The notes beneath the pieces were generated by a model. That model saw nothing but the letters and a program-made list of their open reading frames with translations. It did no database searches and was not told the origin of the DNA. This document shows, one piece after another, positions 42,238 to 64,000 of a DNA stretch of 64,000 bases (position 1 is its first letter; each line of letters begins with the position of its first letter). The stretch is from Escherichia phage PNJ1902. A program made the position numbers and the translations under genes. Location: sequence record OK254197.1, one strand, 5' to 3'.

Positions 42238-42268
42238 ATTTAAACTCCTCTCTCAAATTTATGAATCT

Positions 42269-42297
42269 ATTATACAGAAAAATTTTCCTGAAAGCAA
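42269..42297 (-). promoter_or_regulatory. Strong early promoter, near-identical to the classical T5 PN25 promoter
   Basis: Minus strand reads AAAATTTATTTGCTTTCAGGAAAATTTTTCTGTATAATAGATTCATAAATTTGAGAGAGGAG: A-rich UP region, TTGCTT, 17 bp, TATAAT. Confidence 0.8.
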
Positions 42298-42305
42298 ATA
42301 AATTT

Positions 42306-42548
42306 TTACGATTCCTTGAGCAAAGAAGCAAGTTCAGCATAGACTTTATCTAACTCAAAGCCGATGCGAAGAGACACGTTTGTTTTCCGTTGTTTAAGTA
42401 ACCACTCGGATATGTTAGGGATGCCAGCTAATCTATGTGGTACCACCCTACATAGCTTCTCCGAAGTGTCGTAAACAGGAACTTTACGCTCTTTTACTGG
42501 GAACTTCCTTGTTTCCCATTTTTTATTCTTCACTGTCATTTCTAGCAC
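42306..42548 (-). CDS. Hypothetical protein
   Basis: 80 aa ORF. Confidence 0.45.
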   Translation of the reverse strand: MLEMTVKNKKWETRKFPVKERKVPVYDTSEKLCRVVPHRLAGIPNISEWLLKQRKTNVSLRIGFELDKVYAELASLLKES

Positions 42549-45312
42549 CTAGCTCTGCCATTGCTTCATCATGCATATGTTTCTCCTCATCAGTCATAAA
42601 CTTATATGGGATTGGCATACACTCGATTTTACAATAGGTTCTGTACCAGTCTACAATATTCTCCGTGTTCATATCCTTACCAATACCCATCATACCAAGA
42701 TACATTCTCGCATATTTTGGGTTAGCACTCTGACCTGTTTTAAGGAAGAAATCTTTCTTCTTACCTTTCAGAGCTTCTATGAATGGTTTGATAGTGACAT
42801 TTGAACACTTCTTAATATCTTCCCAGAACATCTCGTGCATTTTATGGAAGAATGCCGCTCGATCATTCGGTTTATCTTTGATATATTGTTCAACGTGCTC
42901 AACTGTTACATCTTTAATAGACTCAAGATGATAGTAGCGAACAAGAAGTAGTTTAGCCTCATACGCATCTGCATGGCGTGGAGCACAATAATCAGGAGTT
43001 GAATACAAAATGGCTTTGATTCGCTCTTCCGTATACTCTTTTCCTGCACCTTCGATAGTTCCCCAGCTTTCACTGAAAATATCAATAGTTGCACCCTGAT
43101 CAAGCAAGTAATAACGTAAGGTACTAGTATAGTTTCTAGATTCCAGCTCTCTACGACGTGCGTATAATTGCTGTGCTAACTCCAGCCAACCTTCATCAAT
43201 GTTATATTGTTCAGAACCTGCGGAGAATCCACTCGTAGATTTATCAATAAAATAATAAATGTTCTGAGCGCCACGGTCGCGCCTGATTGCTTGGAAACGC
43301 ATGTTTGGCGCTTGGTTACTGGTTCTAGTAATAACGAATACGTTATCAAAGTAGTTGAAGTCAACGCCACTCGTTACGGATGGACTACATAATAAGCAAT
43401 CAATTTGTTGATCAATTAGCTCATTAGTTGTGTAATCCAGAATACGTCGAATATCTACATCAGACGTAGAATTTGAGTGGATTTCCTTAACTAGGGCACC
43501 TGTATTACGACGTAATGCCATACCCTTCTCATTCAGTTCATCCGGCCCACAGTCAGATACTAGGATAGATTTCTCACCCATCTCTAGAGAAGTCTGAAGT
43601 GCAACCCAAATACTGGATTCATCCGGGAACTCATAAGCATGAGCTTTTGACAGCATCTTACGGTGATGGTTGTAAAATGCAACCGGTTTATCAAAATCAA
43701 TTAGAGAACCGTAGGCTTCAATCGTCTCAGCACTAATATCACCATCAGATAAGATTACAGTTTTAGCTGTCATGAGGATGTCACGTAGAACTTGAATACA
43801 TTCGCGACGTTGTTTAACAACGGGGGCGAATAATAGATCATTCATTACAGCGTCACATTCATCAATAAAAATGGTGTCTATTTGACCAATAAAACTCTTG
43901 AACTTATGCAAAGAGTGAATAGTTGTGGACATACGGTCAATAGCGCCACGCTTAAAATTAAGCATATCTACAGACTTATCATATTGTCCTGCACTAAATT
44001 TCTTAGCATTTGAAGATACCAGCGCTCTAGTATTTGTAACTGCTAAAAAGTTGCCAGGAAGAACACCTGCGTCCAGCCATTTAGTTACTGCCGTAGTTTT
44101 ACCAGTACCAAGACTTGCCTTAACAAATGTTATATGGCCTTTTGGGGGCACAATGTTAATCTTCAGGTATGGAACTTCTGGTGGAGAATCCACTTCTAAT
44201 TTCTTGAGTGGAACACCTTTCAGATTTAATGGAATCTCACGTTTAGAATTATTAACAAACGCTTTGAGAGCCTGCTTGCGACCGTTATTAAAGTAATCTT
44301 GAATATTACGACTATTATCTTTAGTTGCAATATATTCAGATAAAGCGGGTTTAATCTCACGTTCTAGCCATGCGAAATCAACACCATCCTCTAATGCTCT
44401 ATGGTATAGTTTGGGGATAATACGCAAGTACACCCCATCCTCAGCTTCTTCCAATTCGCTGATGGTTTCTTCTACTTTATCAGACGCGATCTTTTTGCCT
44501 TTAATTTGGTCAAGTAAGGAATAGAATTCCTCTTTAAACTCTCCTCTAGTTGTTTCATAATCAACCAGATTATTGGGCAAATTTACCTTCGAACCTTTAA
44601 CATACACCAGACGTGGCTTACTCTCCGCTTTAAACGGATCTACAATACCATCGCTAAATAAAGGGTCGGCAAAATAGTGAAGCTGGACAGATGAATAATA
44701 AGCTAAGTCGGCAATGTCAAAACCGAATTTTTGCTTACTACTATCGTTGATGGATGTAAATAAGAACTTTAGCTGACCCTGAGTTACCTTGACGTTAGAT
44801 TCTAGCATTAAGTGCATTCGGATACCTGGTTTTAGGCCAGCCGAAGATGATGCATGAGCAATAAACCCTGCATCAAGAGGAAACATGTCCTCACTAATAC
44901 TATTCAACATCTTAATAATGTGGCGGGCCATGCCTACAAGATTAAACTTGTCGTACCCACCGGTATCTAGGATACCATCCACGTCCATAGCAATAATATT
45001 GCTGGGGTTGGATACATTAAAGTTACCTTTCTTACGCCGCACGTTATTTTTAGGTGCAAGACATCGACCTCGTACCGCAACGATATGAGGATCAGACGTT
45101 AAACGTCTCATAAGTGGTAACATTTCGGCAAGGCTTTGCGGGTCATGCTCTTCTATTACATCAAATTTGAAGGGCATAGAGGCTGGTTTACCTTCTGGAT
45201 GCTCTTTCGAGAATCGCTTGGCAAAGGTATAATCCTCCGCTTTGATTTCTCGCCAAATACCTGTTGCTAAATCACGAGAAAATCCGGCGTGACCTTGAAG
45301 AATAGAAAACAC
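42523..45312 (-). CDS. Large P-loop NTPase, putative replication-associated helicase / origin-binding-type protein; GTG start
   Basis: 929 aa; Walker A ASLGTGKTT and Walker B IFIDECD; RBS AGGAG 7 nt upstream of GTG. Confidence 0.75.
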   Translation of the reverse strand: MFSILQGHAGFSRDLATGIWREIKAEDYTFAKRFSKEHPEGKPASMPFKFDVIEEHDPQSLAEMLPLMRRLTSDPHIVAVRGRCLAPKNNVRRKKGNFNVSNPSNIIAMDVDGILDTGGYDKFNLVGMARHIIKMLNSISEDMFPLDAGFIAHASSSAGLKPGIRMHLMLESNVKVTQGQLKFLFTSINDSSKQKFGFDIADLAYYSSVQLHYFADPLFSDGIVDPFKAESKPRLVYVKGSKVNLPNNLVDYETTRGEFKEEFYSLLDQIKGKKIASDKVEETISELEEAEDGVYLRIIPKLYHRALEDGVDFAWLEREIKPALSEYIATKDNSRNIQDYFNNGRKQALKAFVNNSKREIPLNLKGVPLKKLEVDSPPEVPYLKINIVPPKGHITFVKASLGTGKTTAVTKWLDAGVLPGNFLAVTNTRALVSSNAKKFSAGQYDKSVDMLNFKRGAIDRMSTTIHSLHKFKSFIGQIDTIFIDECDAVMNDLLFAPVVKQRRECIQVLRDILMTAKTVILSDGDISAETIEAYGSLIDFDKPVAFYNHHRKMLSKAHAYEFPDESSIWVALQTSLEMGEKSILVSDCGPDELNEKGMALRRNTGALVKEIHSNSTSDVDIRRILDYTTNELIDQQIDCLLCSPSVTSGVDFNYFDNVFVITRTSNQAPNMRFQAIRRDRGAQNIYYFIDKSTSGFSAGSEQYNIDEGWLELAQQLYARRRELESRNYTSTLRYYLLDQGATIDIFSESWGTIEGAGKEYTEERIKAILYSTPDYCAPRHADAYEAKLLLVRYYHLESIKDVTVEHVEQYIKDKPNDRAAFFHKMHEMFWEDIKKCSNVTIKPFIEALKGKKKDFFLKTGQSANPKYARMYLGMMGIGKDMNTENIVDWYRTYCKIECMPIPYKFMTDEEKHMHDEAMAELGARNDSEE

Positions 45313-45810
45313 AACAATACTCCTGTGTTGGTTAATCGAAAATCTTTTCTTTAGGACTATTCAGAAAGAATAGAACAACTATTACTACTGTTTACGTAAA
45401 CATCAATTATCATCAAGCAATATGAATAAGTTATCATATCTCAGTGCTGTGCTCTCTTCGCTCATATACAGAATAGAACCTAGGTCATTGGCCGCTAAGC
45501 CGATTCTATTTGTCCTCACTATCCTATTGGTAGGTGACTACTGTACGTGCCGCCATTCGCTGCTCTTTTCGTTCGCACCCCCATATAAAGCTCTGCCTAT
45601 ATAACGAGCTAAATATGCACGGTTTGGATTTACCTTTCCGAATTCAGGGTACACAGATCACTTAATTGAAGATTAACTAATGCAATATAAACACTAGTAA
45701 TAGTTAAAACAACCCTTAATGGGGCAGCCTAACTGTTCCGTATCGCGGATTGTAAACAAGAAAAATTAGCAAAATCAATTTTTACTAATGTCTCTCAATT
45801 CAATATAAAT

Positions 45811-45839
45811 ATTATATCAAGATTTTGGGCATCCGGCAA
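45811..45839 (-). promoter_or_regulatory. Early promoter firing into an ORF-free leader of about 480 nt
   Basis: TTGCCG - 17 bp - TATAAT followed by ATTTATATTGAATTGAGAGA. Confidence 0.5.
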
Positions 45840-45933
45840 GTAAAATTTTCCGGATGGTGCTATCAGTGTCTTTGAGCATAGAGAAAACCGAGCCAAAATG
45901 ACTCGGTAATCAGAGTTCAGCTAATAAAAATCA

Positions 45934-46323
45934 TTAGTCATTTAATCCCGGAACATAGATCCCAACACGGCTTAACTGTTCTTTAGCTTCTGCGAGAATA
46001 TCTGGAGTGTACTCCCAAATATCATCTTCCACCTGTAAAAGATGGGGCGAACAACCGTCACCAGGCACACGACATATGGCCAAACCACGTGGATGGAATA
46101 TAGAGAAGTTTAGGGCAACAATTAAACCCATAGCGGACAATTCATTCCAGTCCATCTCCCACTCCCTGGCATATCCAGATAGGAAAACGCCAATGCATGG
46201 ATCATCTATTTGCTGCTCAGGAAAAGTGAAGGAGGCTTGTCTTACCCCCAACCAACGTTGTAGCAGCTTCTCCGCACGTTTCACCAAACTAGGGTCAATC
46301 TGACGCCAATATACTTGTTCCAT
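45934..46323 (-). CDS. Hypothetical protein (tandem paralog 2)
   Basis: 129 aa; shares PCIG..., EL.xMGL(I/V)(V/F)ALN(F/Y) and C-terminal (I/Y)(Y/M)(V/I)PGL motifs with upstream neighbour. Confidence 0.55.
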   Translation of the reverse strand: MEQVYWRQIDPSLVKRAEKLLQRWLGVRQASFTFPEQQIDDPCIGVFLSGYAREWEMDWNELSAMGLIVALNFSIFHPRGLAICRVPGDGCSPHLLQVEDDIWEYTPDILAEAKEQLSRVGIYVPGLND

Positions 46324-46332
46324 TCTGCCTCC

Positions 46333-46761
46333 TTAAGCAGTTAAACCTGGGATCATATACCCGAAACGGCGAAGTTTCTGAATCCCCTCATTTACTTCTT
46401 CCGGTGAGTAAGACCAACCATAACGTTCATTAACCTGAAAACCAGGAGATTCACTAGTTTTATAGTTAACAACGAGGCGATGCTTAACAGGCATAAACAG
46501 CTTATAATTTAACGCAAAAACTAAGCCCATTTCGTCTAACTCTTTCCAGCCGACAATCTCTTCAAGACCCTCCTCTACCTGAACAATTAAACCAATACAG
46601 GGAGCCTCATCAATATCATCTTTAAAAGCAAAGGAGATTTCGTTATTCTCACACCATATTTTCAAGGAATTAATAGCCTCATTATACAGGCTAGAGGGGA
46701 GAGTACGCCAAAAGTTAACTAAAATTGGGTTAACTTCTTTAGAGAAGACATTATTGAACAT
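46333..46761 (-). CDS. Hypothetical protein (tandem paralog 1)
   Basis: 142 aa; paralogous motifs as above. Confidence 0.55.
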   Translation of the reverse strand: MFNNVFSKEVNPILVNFWRTLPSSLYNEAINSLKIWCENNEISFAFKDDIDEAPCIGLIVQVEEGLEEIVGWKELDEMGLVFALNYKLFMPVKHRLVVNYKTSESPGFQVNERYGWSYSPEEVNEGIQKLRRFGYMIPGLTA

Positions 46762-46763
46762 AT

Positions 46764-47270
46764 TTACACCTTAAATTGTTGTAAGGATTTACACATTTCA
46801 AGATCTGGGCTAAATTCTAGCATATAGCTAACAGCTTTTAAATCTTGAAGATTTATCCCAGTCCTACCGTTGACTATAACCGTTGGATACTGATACATCA
46901 TAGCACCCGCATCATCAAGCACACACCAATGTTTGAGCTTATGATTTTCAACAAAGCGAAGAACAGAATTACCCCTAGATAATCCACCCCCAGTAAAATC
47001 CGTTGTACCAAGAAAACGATCGATAAGACCTAATCTGGTCATAATCTGAACGTTCTCCATTTCATTTCTGACAGAAAACCAAGATGATACTCCAACAATC
47101 ATTATCGGAGAAGGACGAATAAAGTCCTGAAAAGCCTTGAGAAGCGGTTTGAAAACCCAATCACTTCCAAAGAAAATCTTTTCATCATCAGGTGCATGAT
47201 GGTGGGAGATGCTCGAATTGAGCACCCCATCAATATCTAGAAAAATAATTGGAGTATTACTTATTTCCAT
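46764..47270 (-). CDS. HAD-superfamily phosphatase-like protein
   Basis: 168 aa; motif I IFLDIDGVLN (DxDGx), later VLDDAG acidic motif. Confidence 0.6.
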   Translation of the reverse strand: MEISNTPIIFLDIDGVLNSSISHHHAPDDEKIFFGSDWVFKPLLKAFQDFIRPSPIMIVGVSSWFSVRNEMENVQIMTRLGLIDRFLGTTDFTGGGLSRGNSVLRFVENHKLKHWCVLDDAGAMMYQYPTVIVNGRTGINLQDLKAVSYMLEFSPDLEMCKSLQQFKV

Positions 47271-47439
47271 TTTTGTTCCTTTCTAAGAACGTATCATACT
47301 CAACCGTATCAACATATATAACACCATAGTCATCGGATTTATAGTCCATTTCCCACAGCTCACAGCGATAGCACCAACTACCATCCGCCCACACAAATAT
47401 ATCATCGGGATGTGTATACACAGGTTTAACTATGGACAT
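47257..47439 (-). CDS. Small hypothetical protein
   Basis: About 60 aa from internal ATG (MSIVKPVY...); overlaps neighbours in operon. Confidence 0.35.
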   Translation of the reverse strand: MSIVKPVYTHPDDIFVWADGSWCYRCELWEMDYKSDDYGVIYVDTVEYDTFLERNKNGNK

Positions 47440-48262
47440 ATCTGTTTCCCTTGCTTCTCGACACATAAGGTCTACCCTCTAAATGAGCTTCTACACGAGC
47501 AATAAAATTAGGGTCACTAAAAGCATCTACCGCACCTTTACTCCAGTAGGGGATACCACGTTCTTCTAGCTGGTACATCTCACTACGAGTCATACCTTGA
47601 TAGCCCGGTTCCGCCGCTAGGGCACTATCATAGTAGTTAACAACCATAAGTTTCGCAGCAGTCAAATTAAGAACAGGAAATAATTCCCAGTAGAAGTTAA
47701 TTACTTGGTTAGAGCAACCAACCACAATGATCATATCTTGACTGGTAATACCATCAAAAACATTATACATTTCTGCGTATGCAGGAGCATGCTCCCCAAA
47801 GAAGATTACATTAGGTTTAACCCATTTATAATCATCTGGGTCAATAGAATTGTATCCTACATCAATAATCCGTTTATTGCTACTATTGTAGCTATCAGCT
47901 ACAACAACCTCTTTTAAATATCCGTGAATGTGCAGAATGTCACTATGTGGAACGCCAGCACGCTCAATAAGGTCATCAACGTTGGTAGTCAAGTTTACTA
48001 CTTGACCTGGATATTGTTTATACCATTCACCAATACGCAAATGCGCAAGATTGGGTTCAACAGTTTTTAGCTCTTCACGACGCTTGTTGTAAAACATATG
48101 GGTTTTATGGTAAAAATTACCACGAAAGGCATGAATATTACATACTTCTTCTAGGTCATAATCATCCCACAGTGCTTTACCACTAGCAGTATCAGTACGA
48201 AAAGCTCGTACACCACTTTCAACACTCAAACCTGCACCGCTAATAATAATTAATCTACGCAT
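47426..48262 (-). CDS. Sir2-family (sirtuin-like) NAD-dependent enzyme, apparently lacking the zinc ribbon
   Basis: 278 aa; GAGLSVESGVRAFR (cf. sirtuin GAGISxxSGIPxFR), NLTTNVDDLIERAG (cf. TQNIDxLHxxAG), catalytic HG in ILHIHGYL, PNVIFFGE, VVGCSNQV; no CxxC pairs. Confidence 0.75.
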   Translation of the reverse strand: MRRLIIISGAGLSVESGVRAFRTDTASGKALWDDYDLEEVCNIHAFRGNFYHKTHMFYNKRREELKTVEPNLAHLRIGEWYKQYPGQVVNLTTNVDDLIERAGVPHSDILHIHGYLKEVVVADSYNSSNKRIIDVGYNSIDPDDYKWVKPNVIFFGEHAPAYAEMYNVFDGITSQDMIIVVGCSNQVINFYWELFPVLNLTAAKLMVVNYYDSALAAEPGYQGMTRSEMYQLEERGIPYWSKGAVDAFSDPNFIARVEAHLEGRPYVSRSKGNRYVHS

Positions 48263-48648: not shown

Positions 48649-48657
48649 TCTTGTTCC

Positions 48658-48939: not shown

Positions 48940-48967
48940 AGCTTTCTCCTCTCAAATTTATAAATCT

Positions 48968-48996
48968 ATTATATATAAATTTTTGGCTGAAAGCAA
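48968..48996 (-). promoter_or_regulatory. Strong early promoter (PN25-like) driving the Sir2/HAD operon
   Basis: TTATTTGCTTTCAGCCAAAAATTTATATAATAGATTTATAAATTTGAGAGGAG on minus strand: TTGCTT - 17 - TATAAT. Confidence 0.7.
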
Positions 48997-49002
48997 ATAA
49001 AA

Positions 49003-49032: not shown

Positions 49033-49038
49033 ATTAGC

Positions 49039-50913: not shown

Positions 50914-50942
50914 TATACTCTCCTTCTCTAACTAAGACTACT

Positions 50943-50971
50943 ATTATAACTCATTCGAGGGCGGATGTCAA
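50943..50971 (-). promoter_or_regulatory. Consensus sigma70 promoter for nrdD
   Basis: Perfect TTGACA - 17 bp - TATAAT on minus strand about 30 nt upstream of nrdD ATG. Confidence 0.7.
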
Positions 50972-51163
50972 CAATATTTTACTATAAAGTTCTGTAACAT
51001 GATCTGAGTCAAAAAATTTTATTTGCCAATCTCTATTAAAAATTGTATAATCACGCACTCGTGCACGCGATATAAAATGATTATCTAGTATCACACATCT
51101 CACGTTAAAAGCAAGCAAATTTTTTATTTAAATGCAATATCATAGGCTTATTTAAAATTGTAG

Positions 51164-51192
51164 TTGCTTTTTACTGTATATATTGGTATAAT
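51164..51192 (+). promoter_or_regulatory. Early promoter for phoH unit
   Basis: TTGCTT - 17 bp - TATAAT. Confidence 0.6.
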
Positions 51193-51265
51193 ATATTTGT
51201 AAGTTGATAAACAAGATCTTTTTGTTGATCCTCTGTTAGCGAAGTACACTATAGGAGTGTTATTT

Positions 51266-54714: not shown

Positions 54715-54723
54715 TAAAAACAA

Positions 54724-54747
54724 GGAGATCTTCGGGTCTCCTTTTTC
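54724..54747 (+). terminator. Rho-independent terminator after nrdA
   Basis: GGAGATC-TTCG-GGTCTCC hairpin followed by TTTTTCTTT. Confidence 0.7.
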
Positions 54748-54760: not shown

Positions 54761-54790
54761 TTGCTAATCGCTACCAGATTTGCTATAATA
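54761..54790 (+). promoter_or_regulatory. Early promoter for nrdB-frd-thyA unit
   Basis: TTGCTA - 18 bp - TATAAT. Confidence 0.65.
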
Positions 54791-54820
54791 TTCCTGAAAT
54801 AGTGAGAAAGAGGAAAATCA

Positions 54821-55966
54821 ATGACTACTTTACTAAACCTGAATTGGGATCATACTAACGCTGACCTTTTCCTGGGAGATTCTCTCGGTATCGCAGATTA
54901 TGTACGTGTAGCACACCCAGAACTAGAACGTCTAGCACTTTTGCAACGCTCTCAATTTTGGACTGAAACTGAAATCAGTCTAGAAGCAGATAAGAAACAA
55001 TGGCCTAATCTCCCACGTGAAATTCAGGAAATTACACTCCTGAACTTAGCATGGCAGACTCAAACTGATTCCTTTATCAGTCGTGCTCCTGAAGCAGCTA
55101 TTATGCCGCTTGTAAGTCGTCCAGAATTGGAAGGTATGCTCAAACAGTGGAGCTATTTTGAAGACCTGCATAGTCGTGCTTATAGCAATATTATTCGTAA
55201 TGTGCTAACTGATCCAGCAGAATTTATTGATTCTGTAACCAAAAACCAAGAAGCATTCGCACGCATCGCTGATTCTGTTGAACTATTCGATGAACTGTAC
55301 CAGTTAGGTCAGTATTTCATCGCAGTACGCGATCATCGTGGTGACAATACATATCCAGAAACTGAGTTCCCTGAAGTTAAACGTGAAACTCAGGCTAAAC
55401 TATTAGACGCTTACTTTGCGATCTACGGTCTGGAAGCAATGCAGTTTTACGCATCCTTTGCATGTACCTTTGCATTAGCAGAAAACGATATTCTGCAAGG
55501 TATTGCTAAAAATCTGCAATTAATCGCTAAAGATGAAGCTCTGCACACTCAGATGTCCAAAGCAATCATCCAGATTATGTTTCAACAATTTGACAAAGAT
55601 CTGGTAGAGGAAGCAGTGGCTAAAGCACCAGCACAGCTCCTGAAAACTCTGAAAACTGAAATTGAATGGGGTCATTTCATTTTCAAAGGTCGTAGTCTGA
55701 TTGGCTTGAATGCAGAACTTCTAGAAGAATATCTGTACTTTGTGGGGCGTAATGCATTTATGCACATCGGTGTAGAATGGCCAAGTAACCTGCCGGTAAT
55801 CACCAAGAACCCTATTCCATGGATCATGAACTGGTTGGATACCACTTCTTTACAGCCTGCTCCACAAGAAATCCAGATTGGTGCAGCATATCGTGTAGGT
55901 CAGGTAACTGAGACCTCTACTGATACTCTGAAAGATCTGGGCAATGAATTTGGAGATTTCTTATGA
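54821..55966 (+). CDS. nrdB: Ribonucleotide reductase small subunit (NrdB)
   Basis: 381 aa; di-iron ligand regions (E..H-type, e.g. DEALHTQ) in a ferritin-like helical protein; follows nrdA. Confidence 0.9.
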   Translation: MTTLLNLNWDHTNADLFLGDSLGIADYVRVAHPELERLALLQRSQFWTETEISLEADKKQWPNLPREIQEITLLNLAWQTQTDSFISRAPEAAIMPLVSRPELEGMLKQWSYFEDLHSRAYSNIIRNVLTDPAEFIDSVTKNQEAFARIADSVELFDELYQLGQYFIAVRDHRGDNTYPETEFPEVKRETQAKLLDAYFAIYGLEAMQFYASFACTFALAENDILQGIAKNLQLIAKDEALHTQMSKAIIQIMFQQFDKDLVEEAVAKAPAQLLKTLKTEIEWGHFIFKGRSLIGLNAELLEEYLYFVGRNAFMHIGVEWPSNLPVITKNPIPWIMNWLDTTSLQPAPQEIQIGAAYRVGQVTETSTDTLKDLGNEFGDFL

Positions 55967-56496
55967 TAACGGCATTATATGCAGTTGGGCCGAATGGGGA
56001 GTTCGGCCTCCGAGGTAAACTCCCCTGGGGTTCCTTCAAAGAAGAACTAGATGCTTTCTACTCTCAACTGGACGTGTTGAACCCAGATAACATCATCATT
56101 GGTGCGGGCACTTATTTAGCACTTCCAGAAGTTGTTCGGCAACGTATGATTGGAGAATCTGACCTCTTTATTCGTGCGGATCGTCCTCTGCCTGATGATA
56201 TTAAACATGGTATTTACACTCCAATTTCTAAGATTGGGGATACATTACCTACATTCTTAAAAGATCAACAGACAGTGGTTTTAGGTGGCGCAACATTATT
56301 GTACGAAATGTATATTCATGGACATATTGAAAGTGCTTTTGTATCCACAATCTTTAGTAATCAAAAACTAGAGGCAGATGTACATCTGGATAATACGATT
56401 CTAGATTACAACTATGAATCTACTCGTTTAGTTTACGCAACTGGCGCAAACAGTGATAACAGCCTGCGATTTGTACAGGAATTGGTTACTTATTAA
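55963..56496 (+). CDS. frd: Dihydrofolate reductase
   Basis: 177 aa; N-terminal [25 protein letters not shown]-like; overlaps nrdB stop and thyA start. Confidence 0.8.
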
Positions 56497-57350
56497 TGGA
56501 TCAGTATATCGAAGTTGGAAAACGTATTCTATCAGAGGGTCAGTGGGTAACGAATCCTAGAACAGGGGTTCGTTGCCTAACTATTATTGACGCAGATTTT
56601 ACTTTTAACGTAGGTGCAGGTGAATTCCCCCTTATTACTACCCGTAAGGCGTTTGCAAAACAAGCAATAATGGAAATGATTGGGTATCTACGTGGATATG
56701 ACTCAGCAGCACAATTCCGCGCTATTGGTGTTAACACATGGAATGCTAATGCAAATGAAAACTTAGCTTGGCTAGACAATCCATACCGTAAAGGTGAGGA
56801 TGATATGGGGCGAGTCTATGGTGTTCAAGGACGTCAGTGGACTAATTCCGATGGTCTTATGTTTGACCAACTAGCCAAGATTTATCATAATCTGAAGAAG
56901 GGCATTGATGATCGTGGGGAAATTCTAACATTCTGGAATCCGGGAGAGTTCTCAAAGGGTTGCTTACGTCCATGTATGCACACTCATCAGTTCTCTATTT
57001 TGGGAGATACATTATACCTGAACTCTTTCCAGAGATCTAATGACTTCCTGTTAGGCCAAGTATTTAACATGGTTCAGTGCTATACGCTTCTAGCATTAAT
57101 GGCACAGATTACAGGCCTTAAACCAGGAATTGCACGCCAGAAGATTATCAATCTTCATATCTATGAGGATCAGTATAATGTTTTGATGGAGCATAAGCAA
57201 TTCGATCGTGAACCTTTTGCACATCCTACTCTAGAAATCAATCCAAATATCCGAACTCTGGAGGATGTATTGACCTGGGTAAGTAAGGATGATTTTACTG
57301 TCCGTGGTTACGAACACCACCCTGCTATTGCATATCCATTCACTGTGTAA
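56496..57350 (+). CDS. thyA: Thymidylate synthase
   Basis: 284 aa; catalytic-Cys region [10 protein letters not shown], other ThyA conserved blocks. Confidence 0.9.
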
Positions 57351-57355
57351 TTTAA

Positions 57356-57380
57356 ATAGCCCTTCGGGGCTATTATATTT
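57356..57380 (+). terminator. Putative terminator after thyA
   Basis: ATAGCCC-TTCG-GGGCTAT hairpin followed by T/A-rich tract. Confidence 0.5.
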
Positions 57381-57389
57381 AAATTTCAT

Positions 57390-57419
57390 TTGCTTATTTA
57401 GTGAAATTTAAATATAATA
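57390..57419 (+). promoter_or_regulatory. Early promoter
   Basis: TTGCTT - 18 bp - TATAAT. Confidence 0.6.
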
Positions 57420-57443
57420 TATTTTATAAATTGGAGGCATATA

Positions 57444-57725
57444 ATGATCTCAGCCAAAGAAGCTCAAGAACTTGCAGGATTAACAGAAGTACCTGCATTT
57501 CTAAAGTTTATAGAAGAAAAGATCGTAGAAGCTGCTAAGTCTGGAAATACAGAAGTAATTATTCGAGATAATCCTTACGCTAGGTGGCTATATAATCCTA
57601 GAGAAATGCCAGGAGCAGCTAAATCGGTACTAAAAACCTTATCGGATAAGGGGTATCATATCTCTCAATACTACCGAGAAGCTGCCTTTGTAGACATGGG
57701 TCTTAAAATTAGTTGGGAGGTATAA
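57444..57725 (+). CDS. Hypothetical protein
   Basis: 93 aa; RBS GGAGG; stop overlaps RNase H start (TAATG). Confidence 0.5.
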   Translation: MISAKEAQELAGLTEVPAFLKFIEEKIVEAAKSGNTEVIIRDNPYARWLYNPREMPGAAKSVLKTLSDKGYHISQYYREAAFVDMGLKISWEV

Positions 57726-58201
57726 TGTCGGTTTTCCACATTTACACAGATGGTGCTTGTAAGTCTAACCCAGGTCCAGGTGCTTGGGGTTTTATTGTCT
57801 ATAATGATAACGACGATCGTTTAGGTTCTAAATCTGGTTATAATCCTAAAACTACAAATAATGAGATGGAACTCACAGCTATTGTAGAGGCTTTACGTTG
57901 GTCTGTTAAAAAAGATAATAGACCAATTGCTATCTATACTGACTCTGCTTATTGCAAAAATGGCATGGAAAGTTGGATGTTTTCTTGGCAAAGGAAAGGC
58001 TGGAAGAAAGCAGATGGTGAAGCTCCTCTTAATCTAGAACTTTGGCAGGAAGCATTTAAATTAACACAGCAGTATATCAACTTTCATAATACTAACCCTA
58101 CCTTTATTAAGGTTAAAGGACACTCTGGTATTAGTGGTAATGAAGCTGTAGATGCATTGTGTAATACAGTTATTACTGAAGCTGAAATGGCTGAGATGTA
58201 A
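57725..58201 (+). CDS. rnhA: Ribonuclease H (RNase HI type)
   Basis: DEDD-type acidic residues in YTDGAC, ELTAIVEAL, IYTDSAY, plus GHSGISGNEAVD; ATG at 57725 after GGGAGG. Confidence 0.85.
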   Translation: MSVFHIYTDGACKSNPGPGAWGFIVYNDNDDRLGSKSGYNPKTTNNEMELTAIVEALRWSVKKDNRPIAIYTDSAYCKNGMESWMFSWQRKGWKKADGEAPLNLELWQEAFKLTQQYINFHNTNPTFIKVKGHSGISGNEAVDALCNTVITEAEMAEM

Positions 58202-58221
58202 TAAATAAATTAAAAATTCAC

Positions 58222-58250
58222 TTGCTTAAAGCCCTCTAATTTAGTATAAT
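58222..58250 (+). promoter_or_regulatory. Early promoter flanked by a 9-bp inverted repeat
   Basis: TTGCTT - 17 bp - TATAAT; AAAGCCCTC at 58228-58236 and GAGGGCTTT at 58268-58276. Confidence 0.6.
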
Positions 58251-58277
58251 ATTCGTATTGAAAGTGAGGAGGGCTTT

Positions 58278-58562
58278 ATGCGGATTTATAACTCAAATTC
58301 ATTAGGATTTAAGCCATTGAGAAAACGTGCACAATCACCTCGTCAAATAAGAAAGGCTAATATTGGTGAGCCAGAAACACGTCTTCCACCTCCTCCAGAG
58401 CAACGTTTAGTTTATCTGGACGAAGAGTTAGCTGAACGCGAAAGAAAAGCTCAAGAAGAGATTGAGCGTAAGAAAATGTGTACTGCTCCAGCCTACTCCA
58501 AAGGAGCTTATCAGTATATCTATACAGCCGAGGAGGCTAAAGATGCGGGGCGTAAAAAATGA
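58278..58562 (+). CDS. Hypothetical protein
   Basis: 94 aa; RBS GAGGAGGG. Confidence 0.5.
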   Translation: MRIYNSNSLGFKPLRKRAQSPRQIRKANIGEPETRLPPPPEQRLVYLDEELAERERKAQEEIERKKMCTAPAYSKGAYQYIYTAEEAKDAGRKK

Positions 58563-59008
58563 AGATTACCGAATTTAAAGGTACTTATAGTTTCTTATCT
58601 AACTTTTATTTATCACCAATTACTTTCGAATACCTAAACGAGATATGGCATGCTGATACTGTAGAACATGCTTTTCAGGCTATGAAATCCGACCAAAAAG
58701 ATGATGTAGCTCATGTACTGCGCTCCCTAAATGCAGGAGTTGCCAAACGTAGAGGACGTAAATTAACTCTACGCTCTGACTGGGATAAGGTAAAAGATGA
58801 TGTAATGCTAGAGCTTTTACGGTTAAAGTTTGCAATCCCTGATTTGAGAGACAAACTGTTAGCAACAAAAAATGCAACTTTGATCGAAGGAAATACCTGG
58901 GGAGATACATATTGGGGTGTTTGCCGAGGCATCGGGGATAATACTCTAGGTGTTCTTTTGATGCAGGTAAGGTCTGAAATTAAAAGAAGCTTACAGTTAA
59001 TAAATTAA
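58559..59008 (+). CDS. NADAR (YbiA-like) domain protein
   Basis: 149 aa; FLSNF, EHAFQA, AKRRGRK, WDKVKDDVMLELLRLKF, GNTWGDTYWG, GDNTLGVLLMQVR line up with E. coli YbiA blocks (FSNF, EHYFQA, ARMGR..., NDAYWG, LGYLLMELR) as I recall them. Confidence 0.75.
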   Translation: MKITEFKGTYSFLSNFYLSPITFEYLNEIWHADTVEHAFQAMKSDQKDDVAHVLRSLNAGVAKRRGRKLTLRSDWDKVKDDVMLELLRLKFAIPDLRDKLLATKNATLIEGNTWGDTYWGVCRGIGDNTLGVLLMQVRSEIKRSLQLIN

Positions 59009-59016
59009 AAATTCAT

Positions 59017-59045
59017 TTGCTAAATGCTTCAAATTCTCGTATAAT
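59017..59045 (+). promoter_or_regulatory. Early promoter
   Basis: TTGCTA - 17 bp - TATAAT then ATACTTCATAAATTGA. Confidence 0.65.
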
Positions 59046-59083
59046 ATACTTCATAAATTGATAAACAAAAAGGAAAACAAATA

Positions 59084-59599
59084 ATGGCTAAGCAGAAAAA
59101 CGCAAAAACTCAAGCAGCTCCGGCAGTTAAAACTTTCCCGCAGACCGAGGCTAATCGCAAAGCTCGCCTGGAACGTCACCTGCGTAAGCATCCTACCGAT
59201 ACCCAGGCTGCGCAAGCACTGAATAATCCGGCTCCGATTCGTCAGAAGCCTAAAGCTAAAAATGCCACCCGTAAATCCTACAAAATGGTTATGTATGTAG
59301 AAAATTACGGCCACAAATCTGTCCCAGTTTCCCTGAGCTTTAACGCTGGGGCTGAATTGTTCTCTCGTAATGGTATGTCTATGAAAGACTATGAGAAGGC
59401 AGTTAACCAGAAGCGTAAACCAACAGCAGATGTATTGCGCGATACTCGTGGACAGTTTGGTTCTGTTAAGCCAAATATCTTTGGCGTAGAGTATAGTAAA
59501 GATAATGTTCGTGCTCTGTGTTACGGTGTAGGCATTAAGTTCACGGGTGATTCTGCTTGTAAATCTGCTAAACCAGCTCGTAAGCGTAAAGCGAAGTAA
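59084..59599 (+). CDS. Hypothetical highly basic protein (possible nucleic-acid-binding, highly expressed)
   Basis: 171 aa, Lys/Arg-rich termini; strongly host-optimal codon usage; own promoter and RBS AAAGGAAAA. Confidence 0.55.
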   Translation: MAKQKNAKTQAAPAVKTFPQTEANRKARLERHLRKHPTDTQAAQALNNPAPIRQKPKAKNATRKSYKMVMYVENYGHKSVPVSLSFNAGAELFSRNGMSMKDYEKAVNQKRKPTADVLRDTRGQFGSVKPNIFGVEYSKDNVRALCYGVGIKFTGDSACKSAKPARKRKAK

Positions 59600-59608
59600 T
59601 AGATAAAT

Positions 59609-59630
59609 AGGGGCGAAAGCCCCTACAATC
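59609..59630 (+). terminator. GC-rich tetraloop stem-loop (weak terminator or processing site)
   Basis: AGGGGC-GAAA-GCCCCT; downstream tract not strongly U-rich. Confidence 0.4.
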
Positions 59631-59663
59631 GATTAATTCTCTAACTAATCAAGGATATTTTTT

Positions 59664-59879
59664 ATGTTCTCTAAGAAACCACGTTCTGTTACTGAAATTG
59701 TTGCTTCCTTTACCACTATCACTGATGAGCTTCAAGCTCGTATTGAGGCTGATCAAAAAATCGCAGCTGATATTCAGAAACAGCAGGAAGAACTCGCTTT
59801 AAAGTTGGCTGAAACTAACAAGAGTGAAAAATCTGCCCAAACTATTATGGAAAATATCCTTAAACTGCTGGGCAAGTGA
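59664..59879 (+). CDS. Hypothetical protein
   Basis: 71 aa ORF bracketed by stem-loops. Confidence 0.5.
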   Translation: MFSKKPRSVTEIVASFTTITDELQARIEADQKIAADIQKQQEELALKLAETNKSEKSAQTIMENILKLLGK

Positions 59880-59886
59880 TTTAAAT

Positions 59887-59912
59887 CAGGGGGCAAAAGC
59901 CCCTCTTATTTG
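59887..59912 (+). terminator. Putative terminator
   Basis: AGGGGC-AAAA-GCCCCT followed by CTTATTTGG. Confidence 0.5.
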
Positions 59913-59920
59913 GAGAAACT

Positions 59921-60142
59921 ATGCGTAATTTTGTAGCAAAGAATGATTTTAACCGTGCTAGCACCCATAAGTCAGCTAGGGATTATACACGACTTTCTAG
60001 TCATGAGGTAATGGATTTAGCAGTGGATGAGTTAGACTTAGATGACCCCTATATGGAAGAGAACTGGGATGTCAGTGAGGATATGCTTCCTGGTTTTAAA
60101 GACCCCAAGAAGTGGGAGTCTATTAAAGAGACAGCTCTTTAA
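59921..60142 (+). CDS. Hypothetical protein
   Basis: 73 aa acidic ORF. Confidence 0.5.
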   Translation: MRNFVAKNDFNRASTHKSARDYTRLSSHEVMDLAVDELDLDDPYMEENWDVSEDMLPGFKDPKKWESIKETAL

Positions 60143-60170
60143 TAGTTTTCTACACAATAAAGGATAAGTT

Positions 60171-60872
60171 ATGAAAGTAAAACCATTTGGTATGCTAGAT
60201 ATTGAATCTCTAGGAACTCCAGGAGATTGTGGTACTACTCATATCGCAATGCCTTCTTTCGCTTTTGTGGCTATGCATGGAATTGATAAAGACCCTGATC
60301 TAGTATTTGTTACTTTGGATGTGCAAGATCAACTTAATTCTGGTGCCAAAGTTACAGCATCTACTCTAGCATTCTGGATGGATCAAGCTAAAAATAGTCC
60401 GTCTGCTATCCACATTATGGAAGCTATGAAGGAACGTAATCCAAAACTGATTGCCTTCCAAAATGGTAAACATCATTGCACTAATAAATTAGGCTCAAAC
60501 TATGCTGCCTTCTCTATGGCTCAAAATATTATGGAGTTGGCTCTAGGCGAAAATGCTTTGTATTATGGCAATGGCCCAGAGTTTGATATGACTATCTACT
60601 CTGCAAATACGTTCCATGCTGGAACCAATGAAGAGGTAGTTCCGTGGAAATTCTGGAATTTGGGCAATGTTCGATCTCTTCGTAATCTCTGGATGCAAGC
60701 TGGATACAGTTATAAAGCTCTAGAGACCGAAGGTATTAGCTGGGCAATAGCTAAAATGGAGAAGATGGACACTATTCGTTATGGGATCTATCCGGTTAAG
60801 CACGACCCAGCATTCGATGCCTTAGTTGAGAGCTATTGTGTTGCAGCTATGATCGAAAAAATGAAAATTTGA
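60171..60872 (+). CDS. Putative DEDDh-family 3'-5' exonuclease (DnaQ-like fold)
   Basis: 233 aa; exo I-like MLDIESLG and exo III-like HDPAFDA motifs. Confidence 0.55.
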   Translation: MKVKPFGMLDIESLGTPGDCGTTHIAMPSFAFVAMHGIDKDPDLVFVTLDVQDQLNSGAKVTASTLAFWMDQAKNSPSAIHIMEAMKERNPKLIAFQNGKHHCTNKLGSNYAAFSMAQNIMELALGENALYYGNGPEFDMTIYSANTFHAGTNEEVVPWKFWNLGNVRSLRNLWMQAGYSYKALETEGISWAIAKMEKMDTIRYGIYPVKHDPAFDALVESYCVAAMIEKMKI

Positions 60873-60873
60873 T

Positions 60874-60902
60874 TTGCTTCCGGCTCCAAAATTCTGTATA
60901 AT
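60874..60902 (+). promoter_or_regulatory. Early promoter
   Basis: TTGCTT - 17 bp - TATAAT then ATATTCATAAATTTGAGA. Confidence 0.65.
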
Positions 60903-60942
60903 ATATTCATAAATTTGAGAAAACAATAAAAGGAAAACAAAT

Positions 60943-61125
60943 ATGCCAGTATCTAAAAATGTTCGTAAAAATGGTAAGAAAGCTACTCGTGATCTGGGTA
61001 TCCGTCGTATGGCTGAACGTCAATCAGGTATCCAGAAAATCTTTAATCTACTAAATCGTGCTAATCCTAAAATTGATAACAGTAACGATACTGTTCTGCG
61101 CACTCTGCTGGCAATTGGTCTGTAA
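60943..61125 (+). CDS. Small basic hypothetical protein
   Basis: 60 aa; RBS AAAGGAAAA; own promoter. Confidence 0.45.
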   Translation: MPVSKNVRKNGKKATRDLGIRRMAERQSGIQKIFNLLNRANPKIDNSNDTVLRTLLAIGL

Positions 61126-61178
61126 TAGACCAAATTTAAACAAATTCAAATCTCAAACTTCATATAAGGAAGCAAATA

Positions 61179-61817
61179 ATGACTACTCGTATTTCTAAAA
61201 CTCGTGCTCTGGCAACTATCAAATCTCTGGAAGCTAAAATCCGTAAAGCTACTGAACAGCAGCTTCTGATCGCTGTTGGTGAAGGTAAGGATAAAAACCA
61301 GGTTGTAGTTGGCGCTGCAATCGAAGTAGCCGATCTGTCTACTCGTATTAAGACTGATTTCCAGTCTCTGCTGGATATGATGTCTAAGCGTGATAGTATC
61401 AAATCTGCTCTGATTAAGAGCAATGCAGAAACAATCGTTGAGATTGGTTCTCGTAAGATGACTGTTGCGGAAGCAATTGAAGCTAAGCGTTCTATGGAGC
61501 TTAAAGCTCAGCTGCTGGCTAACATGCGTAAGCAGTTCCATGCCGCTACGGTTAAGTTTAATACGCAGAAAGCACAGTTTGACGCTAAATATGAGCGTTT
61601 GCAGGATAGCATGGCTACCCGCGATAAGAAAACTTCCGAAGATGAAGTTAAAATGCAGCTCAACCTGCTGGAACTCAAGAATACTCCATTCTTGATTGAT
61701 CCGCTGGAACTGGAGAAGCTGATTAAGCAGCATGACGAGGAATACCAGGACTTTGCAACAAATGTTGACTTTGTTCTGTCCGAGTCTAACGCCTCTACCT
61801 TCATTGAAGTAGAGTAA
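61179..61817 (+). CDS. Hypothetical protein (highly expressed early protein)
   Basis: 212 aa; host-optimal codon usage; RBS AAGGAAG. Confidence 0.6.
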   Translation: MTTRISKTRALATIKSLEAKIRKATEQQLLIAVGEGKDKNQVVVGAAIEVADLSTRIKTDFQSLLDMMSKRDSIKSALIKSNAETIVEIGSRKMTVAEAIEAKRSMELKAQLLANMRKQFHAATVKFNTQKAQFDAKYERLQDSMATRDKKTSEDEVKMQLNLLELKNTPFLIDPLELEKLIKQHDEEYQDFATNVDFVLSESNASTFIEVE

Positions 61818-62200
61818 TAATTTAAAAGCTAGTAAATCGGTAGACGAAAGCCTAAGCATCTTACCTCGCAGCAGCGGTTGAAATACGAGGTTAAATAAGA
61901 CCGCTGACCATACTATAAAGTATAATCTATTGGAGATTATGTTTATTACACCAGCCTTTTAAGCTGACACGTAAGAACAAAGCGTCGTTGATATTACCGA
62001 CACAACTTCAAAGATCAACATTTAAGTATGAAAGCTGAAAAGTTTAAAGAACTCAAACTTCTAAACTTCTAAAGCTAAAAGATGCAAAGTATTCGTTGAT
62101 GATTCAAACCCTAGATCAAAGGTACATGGCTCATAAGATATGGCCTGTGGCGCCTCTAGGCTGTTTATCGGTTTACTAGTTTCACAATTTAAAAATGTAT

Positions 62201-62229
62201 TTGCTAATCTACTAAATTATATGTATAAT
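62201..62229 (+). promoter_or_regulatory. Early promoter
   Basis: TTGCTA - 17 bp - TATAAT. Confidence 0.65.
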
Positions 62230-62259
62230 ATATTTTTAAATTGATGAAACGAGGCTATT

Positions 62260-62577
62260 ATGACTTTTCATATTTTGATTGATGATGTGCGTAATCTTCA
62301 CGGAATGGACATTATCATTCGAACCCCAGAAGCCGCTGTAGAGTTTCTGAATAAAACTGATACCACAGGCCATTTTGTTTATATGGATAATGACTTGGCT
62401 GTAGATGGTATGGAAGGTTATCAAATTCTTCGTTTACTCTTAGAATTTGGGCAGAGACCAAAGAAAGTGGTACTAGTAACCTCGAACCCAGTAGCTAAGC
62501 AAAATATGCGTAATGATTTGCTTGACTTAGGGTATAAAGAAAATCCCAATCGTGTTGAATATGATTGGCAGGAGTAA
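62260..62577 (+). CDS. Hypothetical protein
   Basis: 105 aa ORF with RBS; overlaps downstream gene. Confidence 0.5.
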   Translation: MTFHILIDDVRNLHGMDIIIRTPEAAVEFLNKTDTTGHFVYMDNDLAVDGMEGYQILRLLLEFGQRPKKVVLVTSNPVAKQNMRNDLLDLGYKENPNRVEYDWQE

Positions 62578-63032
62578 AAAGAATGAAGGCAGCTTTGCTT
62601 TTAGTAGCTGCCCTTACCTTCAGCTTTAGTAGTCAGGCATCGCACGATGCAAAAGAAATAGATTGCATTGCTAAAAATATCTATTTCGAGAGTCGTGGTG
62701 AGGGCATAAAGGGAATGACGGCGATTGCACATGTTACTAAAAACCGTGTAAACTCCGGTAAATTCCCAGATTCCTACTGTAAAGTAGTATATCAGTCTAA
62801 CCAGTTCTCTTGGGTATCTAAGAGACCAAAAGTTGATAAAACCGATGAGGCTTGGCAAACAGCCAAGAATTTAGCTAGAGTGATATACTACGTTGATTTA
62901 CCACAAGATCCTACACATGGAGCACTATACTTCCATAGTGGTAAAGATAAACCTTATTGGACAAAGAAGTTTAAGAAAACAACTAAGATTAAGGGACATA
63001 CGTTTTATAAACCTGTTGTCACTAAAACTTAA
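62565..63032 (+). CDS. Secreted cell-wall hydrolase-like protein (SleB / Hydrolase_2-like) with signal peptide
   Basis: N-terminal MKAALLLVAALTFSFSSQA signal-like segment; CIAKNIYFESRGEG...VTKNRV and SNQFSWV motifs. Confidence 0.6.
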   Translation: MAGVKRMKAALLLVAALTFSFSSQASHDAKEIDCIAKNIYFESRGEGIKGMTAIAHVTKNRVNSGKFPDSYCKVVYQSNQFSWVSKRPKVDKTDEAWQTAKNLARVIYYVDLPQDPTHGALYFHSGKDKPYWTKKFKKTTKIKGHTFYKPVVTKT

Positions 63033-63040
63033 AAATTTAC

Positions 63041-63069
63041 TTGCTTAAATACTTAAATTTCTGTATAAT
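63041..63069 (+). promoter_or_regulatory. Early promoter
   Basis: TTGCTT - 17 bp - TATAAT. Confidence 0.65.
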
Positions 63070-63100
63070 ACTTCCATAAACTAATGAGAGGAAGCGAAAT

Positions 63101-63271
63101 ATGAAATCAGTTGTAATTATTGGTGTTAACACTCGCGGTATTCGTACTACGAAAACTGTTAAAACATCTAACGTGGCTGAAATTACTACTAACCCTAAAA
63201 AGTTTGATTTCGCCAAAGTCTCGGCAGTTATGACAGAACAATCTTTTAACCAAGCGTTAGGAATGAAATAA
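63101..63271 (+). CDS. Small hypothetical protein (56 aa, below ORF-track threshold)
   Basis: ATG preceded by GAGAGGAAG RBS and a dedicated promoter; MKSVVIIGVNTRGIRTTK...; stop overlaps next ATG (TAATG). Confidence 0.35.
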   Translation: MKSVVIIGVNTRGIRTTKTVKTSNVAEITTNPKKFDFAKVSAVMTEQSFNQALGMK

Positions 63272-63714
63272 TGGAAGAGAATATTTTAGATGTTTTGCGT
63301 AGAGCTTTGCAGGATTCTAAGTTTAATGGTTCTGATAAAGAAGTCGCTAAAAGCTACCAGACCATAATCGGGGATCTTCAGCGTATTGATAAAGATTTCA
63401 TCACTTCTGAACAATTTGTGTCTTATCTCAAAGCTCAACTAAAAAGCATTAACCAGATGAAAGCTAAACTTCATGGTCAAGATCTTGATAGTTATAGCTT
63501 GCAGTCTGCTCAGTATGAGTACATTCTAAATAAATGGTTGCAGGAGTATCTGCCTCCTCAGTTATCTGATACTGAGATTCGTAAATACTTTGCAGAATTA
63601 GTTAAGCTAAACCCTGGAATTACAAAGGGTATGCTGATGAAAGCGATTAAGGAAGAATTTCCTGGGCGTTATGATGGCGGTACTGCTGCTCAGATTGCTG
63701 GCGAATTTAATTAA
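63271..63714 (+). CDS. GatB/YqeY-domain-like protein
   Basis: 147 aa; C-terminal ...PGITKGMLMKAIKEEFPGRYDGGTAAQIAGE resembles the YqeY family. Confidence 0.45.
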   Translation: MEENILDVLRRALQDSKFNGSDKEVAKSYQTIIGDLQRIDKDFITSEQFVSYLKAQLKSINQMKAKLHGQDLDSYSLQSAQYEYILNKWLQEYLPPQLSDTEIRKYFAELVKLNPGITKGMLMKAIKEEFPGRYDGGTAAQIAGEFN

Positions 63715-63722
63715 AAATTTAT

Positions 63723-63751
63723 TTGCTAAATGCCTTTAAATTCTGTATAAT
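63723..63751 (+). promoter_or_regulatory. Early promoter firing into ORF-free region at window end
   Basis: TTGCTA - 17 bp - TATAAT then ATATTCATAAATTAGGG; almost identical to the promoters at 59017 and 60874. Confidence 0.65.
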
Positions 63752-64000
63752 ATATTCATAAATTAGGGAACAGCGAGCCGATTACGCTGAGTGCAGAATC
63801 CCAACCGGAGCGCATTGAATAGAGTCGGTGGGTTAGTTGTAAAACTAGTACACAGGGGGCGGCAATCCCGGTTAGTGGCTAGAACGTGTAAAATGAGGCG
63901 TCTGAAACCTCTCCCCTAAACTCTTCTCTAATTTATAAATAGTGGGGTGTGGAAATCACTTATGTAGTAACACTGCCGTCCTAGTATAATTGGTATTATC

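Follow-up and report, generated by a model that had tools for sequence, protein, structure and literature searches.

The 64,000-nt stretch of DNA from Escherichia phage PNJ1902 analysed here (OK254197.1; referred to below as the window) contains many promoter-like elements of one kind, each with an A/T-rich upstream block, -35 and -10 hexamers and a box downstream of the -10. The question raised by these elements was whether they are the early promoters of a T5-like phage, and what the downstream box contributes to them. The early promoters of T5, including PN25, have been studied since the 1980s in the Bujard and Ksenzenko laboratories, and PN25 is a standard part of expression vectors. Gentz and Bujard are said to have noted in 1985 that the T5 early promoters are homologous around -43 and in the transcribed region. 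The shared features were reportedly an A/T-rich upstream block, a TTGCTW -35, a consensus -10 and a conserved transcribed region.

The window is from a Tequintavirus (T5-like), with about 97% identity to slur09 and SSP1. A 4-kb segment surrounding the copy at 42269 matched 530 phage records, all of T5-like Demerecviridae, with Escherichia phage slur09 and Shigella phage SSP1 at the top (97%). Relative to T5 st0 (AY692264), the window is in the reverse complement of the standard T5 orientation. The part from about 24,250 to 64,000 is the counterpart of the T5 early region and extends from D15/dUTPase over the polymerase, ligase, origin-binding helicase and nrd genes towards the tRNA region; the part below about 24,200 is the counterpart of late tail genes.

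A promoter family in the early region

The combination TTGCTW-N16-19-TATAAT occurred 15 times in the window, compared with 0.41 expected from dinucleotide shuffles, and a count of 15 was reached in none of 100 shuffles. The spacer was 17 nt in 14 of these exact sites and 18 nt in the other. The -10 hexamer followed by the box (TATAAT-N5-9-ATAAAYT) was found 11 times, with 0.15 expected. Scans for the generic sigma-70 consensus showed no enrichment (54 found versus 57 expected, and 53 versus 60), so the signal was specific to the TTGCTW/TATAAT/box family. The family proposed in the initial annotation is thus real and highly non-random, and all six copies located there were exact matches.

A position matrix built from the family sites gave 19 convincing members, which scored 36-70 bits; the best score in shuffled sequence was about 1-3 bits. 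The members are designated below by strand and position at the -10 (for example, -42274). Four of them were additional to the 15 exact sites, each with one or two changes in the -35. All 19 lay within 30,257-63,770 and none in 1-30,000, leaving the late region empty by the matrix. The minus-strand members extended up to 50,971 and the plus-strand members started from 51,164. This is the layout of the divergent early gene blocks, with which the members were co-oriented. A weak match inside nrdA (+52340; TAGAAT, 19 bits) was put aside as probably no promoter.

The interval first assigned to the family, 42,241-63,760, contained 11 exact -35/spacer/-10 sites and 13 members by the matrix, the extra ones being -45816 (TTGCCG) and -50948 (TTGACA). 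It was too narrow, as six more members lay on the minus strand at 30,257-41,289 and the family starts about 12 kb before the interval. The count of at least a dozen sites sharing all the elements was overstated: the strict form of the box, ATAAA(T/C)T, was present in only 7 of the 13 members, and the others were degenerate (for example, TTAAATTGATGA and GTAAGTTGATAA).

Alignment of the sites on the -10 hexamer produced a consensus that starts with ttAAAAtTttA and tTTGCTw, continues through a spacer of 17 nt (with preferred GC near -30 and aAatTT near -20), and ends with TATAAT, ATaTtt and aTAAAtTgagA. The UP-like A/T block directly before the -35 (ttAAAAtTttA) contained 10.0 bits over 16 positions, the -35 block (seven positions, the hexamer and the preceding base) 6.8 bits, the -10 hexamer 8.7 bits, the discriminator 4.4 bits and the box at +1 to +13 9.2 bits. 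The downstream box was therefore about as informative as a core hexamer.

Pairwise identity over the 55-nt core averaged 60% (background, 26%), and the best pair reached 80%. The longest exact runs shared by two copies were 27 nt (60889-60915 and 63738-63764), 22 nt and 20 nt; usually they were shorter than 15 nt. The copies belong to one conserved motif family, and their description as near-identical, with near-duplicates of about 45 bp, was overstated.

The published T5 promoters, suggested for comparison in the initial annotation, accounted for most of the family. Seventeen of the 19 sites matched promoter features annotated in GenBank records of T5 or BF23. Sixteen aligned to features of T5 st0, five of them named (P-N25, P-N26, P-K28a, P-H207 and P-D/E33; 95-100% identity) and 11 annotated as 'putative promoter'. 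One more, the site at 63746, matched P16-17 in the tRNA-region record of BF23, where it precedes the stable RNA designated RNAX and then tRNA-Arg. The 2023 BF23 genome also has 'hypothetical early promoters' annotated at corresponding positions (PMC10644984).

The copy at 42269 had been recognized as the classical PN25, and the alignment agreed. This member (-42274; 42250..42297, minus strand) lies upstream of a 234-amino-acid gene (41533..42237), with its -35 TTGCTT at 42297-42292, its -10 TATAAT at 42274-42269 and its predicted +1 at 42262. It aligned to T5 st0 54979-55064 (96.5% over 86 nt), overlapping the annotated P-N 25 (54987-55061). The two were identical from about -37 to +18, and the mismatches were confined to positions further upstream.

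In general, the members occupied the same positions relative to the same genes, and had the same architecture, as the T5 early promoters (AY692264). Besides the identical PN25 core and the 100% match at P-K28a, the other orthologues were 91-100% identical. On the other hand, the window phage is a different isolate, with about 3-6% divergence, and does not have some of the promoter-adjacent homing-endonuclease insertions of T5. In addition, +57413 had no sequence counterpart in T5, and -30382 is not annotated as a promoter in the records of T5 st0 and BF23 that were examined.

The transcribed box and early-promoter function

In the published numbering of N25, TATAATAGATTCAT spans -12 to +2 (Klimuk et al., PMC7472727), and the box ATAAATTTGAGAG therefore represents positions +1 to +13 of the transcript. 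The box had been suggested to be a shared initial transcribed sequence (ITS), and this was borne out. It is the same element as the 'downstream sequence region' of N25 (Kammerer et al. 1986; Hsu laboratory), that is, +1 to +13 of AUAAAUUUGAGAGAGGAG.

Replacement of +3 to +20 of N25 resulted in about 10-fold less full-length RNA and much slower promoter escape (PMC12464699; PMC5961368); for the downstream-sequence effect of N25, PMC5961368 cites Kammerer et al. (1986). Hsu and Han concluded that the native N25 sequence evolved to speed the escape of polymerase, which is bound extremely tightly at this promoter (PMC12464699; PMC5961368). In the window, the distance from the box to the -10 was fixed and that to the start codon varied from about 22 to about 500 nt; the box was also kept before the non-coding RNAX. 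The fixed spacing and the RNAX copy, together with the occurrence of the N25 effect in purified transcription, suggested that the promoter, rather than the ribosome-binding site, is where the box acts. Rfam at gathering thresholds gave no matches over 28,000-64,000, so that the box does not belong to any known RNA family.

When the window-derived matrix was run on all the promoter features of T5 st0, nine of the 12 annotated early-left-arm promoters scored 34-59 bits, and the llp promoter 42 bits. The pre-early promoters scored from -11 to -34, the late promoter P-G25 10.9 and the late promoter P-J5 -32. The ITS sub-score divided the classes as the full matrix did. This class split agrees with the report that the discriminator is what mainly distinguishes the T5 early promoters from the late ones, with ATATT as the early hallmark (Klimuk et al., PMC7472727).

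The orthologous sites in ten relatives were 93-94% conserved in the discriminator and box, compared with 81-85% in the flanks. In Klebsiella phage pKMKP103 (Sugarlandvirus), of which the coding DNA is only about 66-72% identical, 10 sites fitted the matrix, several of them with ATAAATTTGAGAGAGG. The ITS experiments cover N25 only, whereas the sequence preference seen here is a property of about 19 promoters and of a second genus. Among the IMG/VR matches listed for the exact composite pattern, most were on contigs of 104-128 kb, often several per contig.

The alignment to T5 and BF23 promoter features and the restriction to the early region supported the original reading of the sites as early promoters. 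We interpreted them as early-class sigma-70 promoters of a T5-like phage that combine tight polymerase binding with an escape-promoting transcribed sequence, and put the probability of this interpretation at roughly 0.93. In each unit, the -35 TTGCTW would be immediately preceded by a UP-like block rich in A and T, AAAATTT(T)A, and separated from a perfect TATAAT by 17 nt, in which GC and AAATT have preferred positions. A discriminator that is also A/T-rich, ATAT(T)C, and an initial transcribed sequence A(+1)TAAATTGAGA would follow. The UP-like block and the consensus -10 would lead to very tight binding of the host RNA polymerase, and the conserved ITS to its fast escape into elongation. The outcome would be many strong co-oriented starts, from which the early-region genes for nucleotide metabolism, replication and tRNAs/stable RNAs are transcribed. 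We infer from the T5 work that the window sites do initiate transcription, that they are strong and early, and that their boxes serve escape.

Several points weigh against this interpretation. Initiation, strength and timing are transferred from T5, and -30382 and +57413 have no annotated T5 counterpart. In T5 itself, primer-extension products were seen in vivo for only 11 of the 19 in-vitro promoters tested (Klimuk et al., PMC7472727). The conservation of the -35 to -10 block is biased upward, because this block served to find the orthologues. Finally, -41266, -50948, +54784 and +58245 carry only a degenerate box, so the box is preferred but not required.

The individual promoters and their surroundings

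The minus-strand members included two more named promoters. The P-N26 orthologue (-41266; 41242..41289) was 98.6% identical to T5 st0 56022-56090 (P-N 26, 56013-56087), and its degenerate box was CATAGTTTGAAAG. The P-K28a orthologue upstream of ligB (-38875; 38851..38898) was 100% identical to T5 st0 58397-58481. A TTGACA-17-TATACT element at 38991-38963 fell at the location of T5 P-K28b by coordinate transfer. The early promoter before ligA (-40050; 40026..40073), which matched the T5 'putative promoter' 57237-57304, was directly abutted by a terminator hairpin (40118-40090).

The promoter before the DNA polymerase gene (34838..34886, minus) had TTGCTG, an 18-nt spacer, TATAAT and a weak box, and corresponded to the T5 'putative promoter' 62954-63022. 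Two minus-strand members were in tandem. The first, -30382 (30358..30405), lay at the 3' end of the D10 helicase gene and consisted of TTGGCA-17-TATAAT followed by ATAAATTTGAGAGAG; its counterparts in T5 and BF23 carry no promoter annotation in AY692264 and OR083247. The second, -30281 (30257..30305), was 101 nt downstream, with TTGCTA and an 18-nt spacer, and matched the T5 'putative promoter' 67535-67603.

At -45816 (45792..45839, minus), the -35 was TTGCCG and the T5 counterpart was the 'putative promoter' 50951-51018. Between this member and the origin-binding helicase gene, a minus-strand leader of about 500 nt (45313-45810) contained no open reading frame of more than 43 amino acids, and the gap was also present in T5. 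The leader carried a long-range inverted repeat (45377-45394 and 45688-45705; 18 nt, 94% complementary). Rfam gave no match for the stretch, which may represent a structured leader, a small RNA or a site related to replication.

The early promoter -48973 (48949..48996, minus; T5 'putative promoter' 47660-47727) came right after the terminator hairpin of nrdD (49031-49007). The nrdD promoter itself (-50948; 50924..50971, minus), in the divergent region, was the weakest of the family, with TTGACA-17-TATAAT and a degenerate box; it corresponded to the T5 'putative promoter' 45686-45752. On the other side of the divergent region, the promoter of the phoH/nrdA operon (51164..51211, plus) was 100% identical to T5 st0 45429-45513 ('putative promoter' 45431-45497).

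The remaining members were on the plus strand. The nrdB-frd-thyA promoter (+54784; 54761..54808) was located directly after a terminator hairpin (54722-54743). The thyA allele of the window clustered with those of EPS7-type phages and not with that of T5. The member +57413 (57390..57437), preceded by the hairpin AATAGCCCTTCGGGGCTATT, lies before an open reading frame of 93 amino acids and rnhA. No sequence counterpart was found in T5 st0, and orthologues exist in SP01 and KookSpook. The adjacent 93-amino-acid protein gene (57444-57725; phrog_5321) was absent from T5 and BF23, and the promoter together with the gene start was orthologous in SP01 and KookSpook.

The early promoter +58245 (58222..58269; T5 'putative promoter' 38131-38197) had the degenerate box ATTGAAAGTGAGGAGG. 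The P-H207 orthologue (59040; 59017..59064) was 98.5% identical to T5 st0 37778-37845 (P-H 207, 37781-37855). A promoter-adjacent gene for a 149-amino-acid NADAR-domain protein (58559-59008, plus; Pfam E = 6e-22) was absent from T5 and BF23; SP01 has it, annotated as YbiA-like.

The next two were the early promoter +60897 (60874..60921; T5 'putative promoter' 36186-36253) and the one before a 105-amino-acid open reading frame and the cell-wall hydrolase gene (62201..62248; T5 'putative promoter' 34860-34927). In DT57C (about 19560-19620), the orthologue of +60897 contained a short tandem duplication, in which aaattctgTATAATatattcat was repeated, resulting in two -10 boxes in tandem.

The P-D/E33 orthologue (63064; 63041..63088) was 95% identical to T5 st0 34019-34100 (P-D/E 33, 34022-34096). 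The last member, the orthologue of BF23 P16-17 (63746; 63723..63770), precedes the non-coding stable RNAX, with no open reading frame, in a region deleted in T5 st0. The sequence at 63758-64000 (plus) matched 'RNAX, stable RNA with unknown functions', which is 784 nt in BF23 and is followed there by tRNA-Arg; the window ends within RNAX. ARAGORN detected no tRNA in the window.

Two features lay outside the range of the family. Where the convergent early and late blocks meet, a strong bidirectional terminator hairpin was present at 24217-24251, with a stem of 14-15 bp and T-runs on both strands. In the late tail-fibre region, 21545-22062 contained direct repeats, including an exact 85-nt pair (21903-21987 and 21978-22062) and shorter repeats of 20-28 nt at a spacing of about 63 nt.

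Recombination, regulation and translation as alternative roles

The promoter cores might instead be dispersed recombination linkers, between copies of which cassettes are gained, lost or swapped, like the promoter-early-stem-loop (PeSL) elements of T4-type phages. We regard this as unlikely. A precedent exists in the shuffling that PeSL elements mediate among T4-type phages (PMC2839356, PMC4122927), and both systems have repeated strong early sigma-70-type promoters in accessory-gene-rich regions. Some T5-type copies are also fused to an upstream terminator hairpin (-40050, -48973, +54784 and +57413), and some lie at indel boundaries between related genomes. On the other hand, most copies here lack a stem-loop: a convincing abutting hairpin was present at only 5-6 of the 19 sites, namely the four above, -45816 and possibly -30281. 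The identity among the copies is modest, and exact sequence common to them does not exceed 27 nt and is usually below 15 nt, too little to favor such a role.

Homology breakpoints were compared between the window and ten relatives, including T5, BF23, EPS7, DT57C, phC17, YZU-L1, MSP1, SP01 and KookSpook. The promoter footprint was taken as -50 to +25 of the -10 hexamer, which covers 4% of the region. Ten of the 53 breakpoint clusters fell inside the footprints (p = 5e-5 versus uniform placement). Breakpoints generally sit at gene junctions, and a comparison among junctions is therefore fairer than the uniform null. By a hand tally, breakpoints were present at 12 of the 14 promoter-bearing junctions and 12 of the 23 promoter-less ones (Fisher one-sided p = 0.04); this excess was marginal, with a two-sided p of 0.07. 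Many other indels lay at promoter-less gene junctions with microhomologies of their own. Selection by itself would also be enough to place those breakpoints that survive at the borders of functional promoters.

The clearest case for exchange was BF23_00138, an extra gene for a 109-amino-acid protein (phrog_35630) between the primase and polymerase genes of BF23 (BF23 6400-6900, corresponding to window 34856-34867). It splits the BF23 DNA polymerase promoter, the counterpart of 34838..34886 in the window, with the junctions at the -10 hexamer. The gene thus has a -10 hexamer on either side, which results in two hybrid promoters; in the window, the alignments of the two flanks overlap by 12 nt. 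It contains no endonuclease, and was the only clean promoter-to-promoter cassette junction found among the relatives compared. A second candidate of this type, SPN7C_034 of MSP1, was rejected as a homing endonuclease of the GIY-YIG/T5orf172 type (DUF4379, CapR, MUG113 and T5orf172 domains). Also in favor of exchange, the -48973 core precedes five different downstream genes in the relatives, and three different upstream contexts are seen before the PN25 core.

Most promoter-adjacent indels, however, are homing endonuclease genes by their annotations and their Pfam and PHROG matches, and these insert by their own mechanism. In the relatives, HNH homing endonuclease genes were inserted at the nrdB promoter, in position -31 or +7 counted from the first base of its -10, and endonuclease genes were also present before PN25 and after the RNAX promoter. 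The deletion in T5 st0 was considered as a product of recombination through a promoter repeat and discarded: the 10-bp recombination site annotated for it is in ordinary sequence and not within any promoter.

The initial annotation had proposed the copies as possible recombination sites. One clean promoter-to-promoter junction speaks for this proposal, and the small amount of exact sequence and the predominance of homing-endonuclease indels speak against it. Promoter-mediated shuffling may occur but would be minor. As a general property of Demerecviridae, the promoter cores (about -45 to +15) doubling as portable, PeSL-like junctions for gene-cassette exchange appears doubtful. The exchanged unit would be 'discriminator-leader-gene-next promoter up to its -10', moving between the -10/discriminator regions of neighboring or heterologous promoters. 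We know of no description of promoter-core cassette exchange for T5-like phages.

Another possibility, which we consider rather improbable, is that the discriminator and box are mainly a class-specific target of a phage factor that shuts off early transcription at the onset of late expression. The RNA-polymerase-binding gpT5.026, the D5 DNA-binding protein or a repressor may be such a factor, acting directly or via the polymerase. In accord with this, the discriminator and ITS sub-scores were positive in most early-class promoters of T5, and the ITS sub-score was negative in all the pre-early promoters and in the late P-J5. The discriminator ATATT is also the chief difference between the early and late T5 promoters, and gpT5.026 weakens polymerase binding at -5/+2 and lowers the early transcripts (Klimuk et al., PMC7472727). 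The conservation of the box in a distant genus fits as well. On the other hand, the box is degenerate in about half of the members and has no visible palindrome or repeat of the repressor-operator type. Promoter escape is a sufficient function, already demonstrated for the N25 sequence (PMC12464699).

Last, the box might act in the RNA, as a common A/U-rich 5' leader for ribosome loading or for stability of the early messages. A/U-rich leaders are translation enhancers, and the box is followed in many copies, within a few bases, by a Shine-Dalgarno sequence, GAGG or GGAG (ATAAATTTGAGAGAGGAG at 42262 and ATAAATTTGAGAGGAG at 48961). This role is highly improbable: the box is locked to the -10 and not to the start codon, the promoter of the non-coding RNAX has kept it (most of the box preceding RNAX, because the annotated 5' end is about 8 nt downstream of the predicted +1), and the ITS effects of N25 appear in purified transcription assays without ribosomes (PMC12464699).

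The identification of the sites as early-class promoters is correct but ordinary, its essentials being already known from the literature and from the GenBank annotation of T5 and BF23, and it leaves the current understanding of T5 transcription unchanged. With the 19 sites, the early transcription units of this phage are delimited, and the practical value lies in annotation. The family matrix cleanly parts the early-class promoters from the pre-early and late ones, and could be used to annotate hundreds of T5-like genomes. Of wider interest is whether the promoter cores help to shuffle accessory genes among the T5-like phages.

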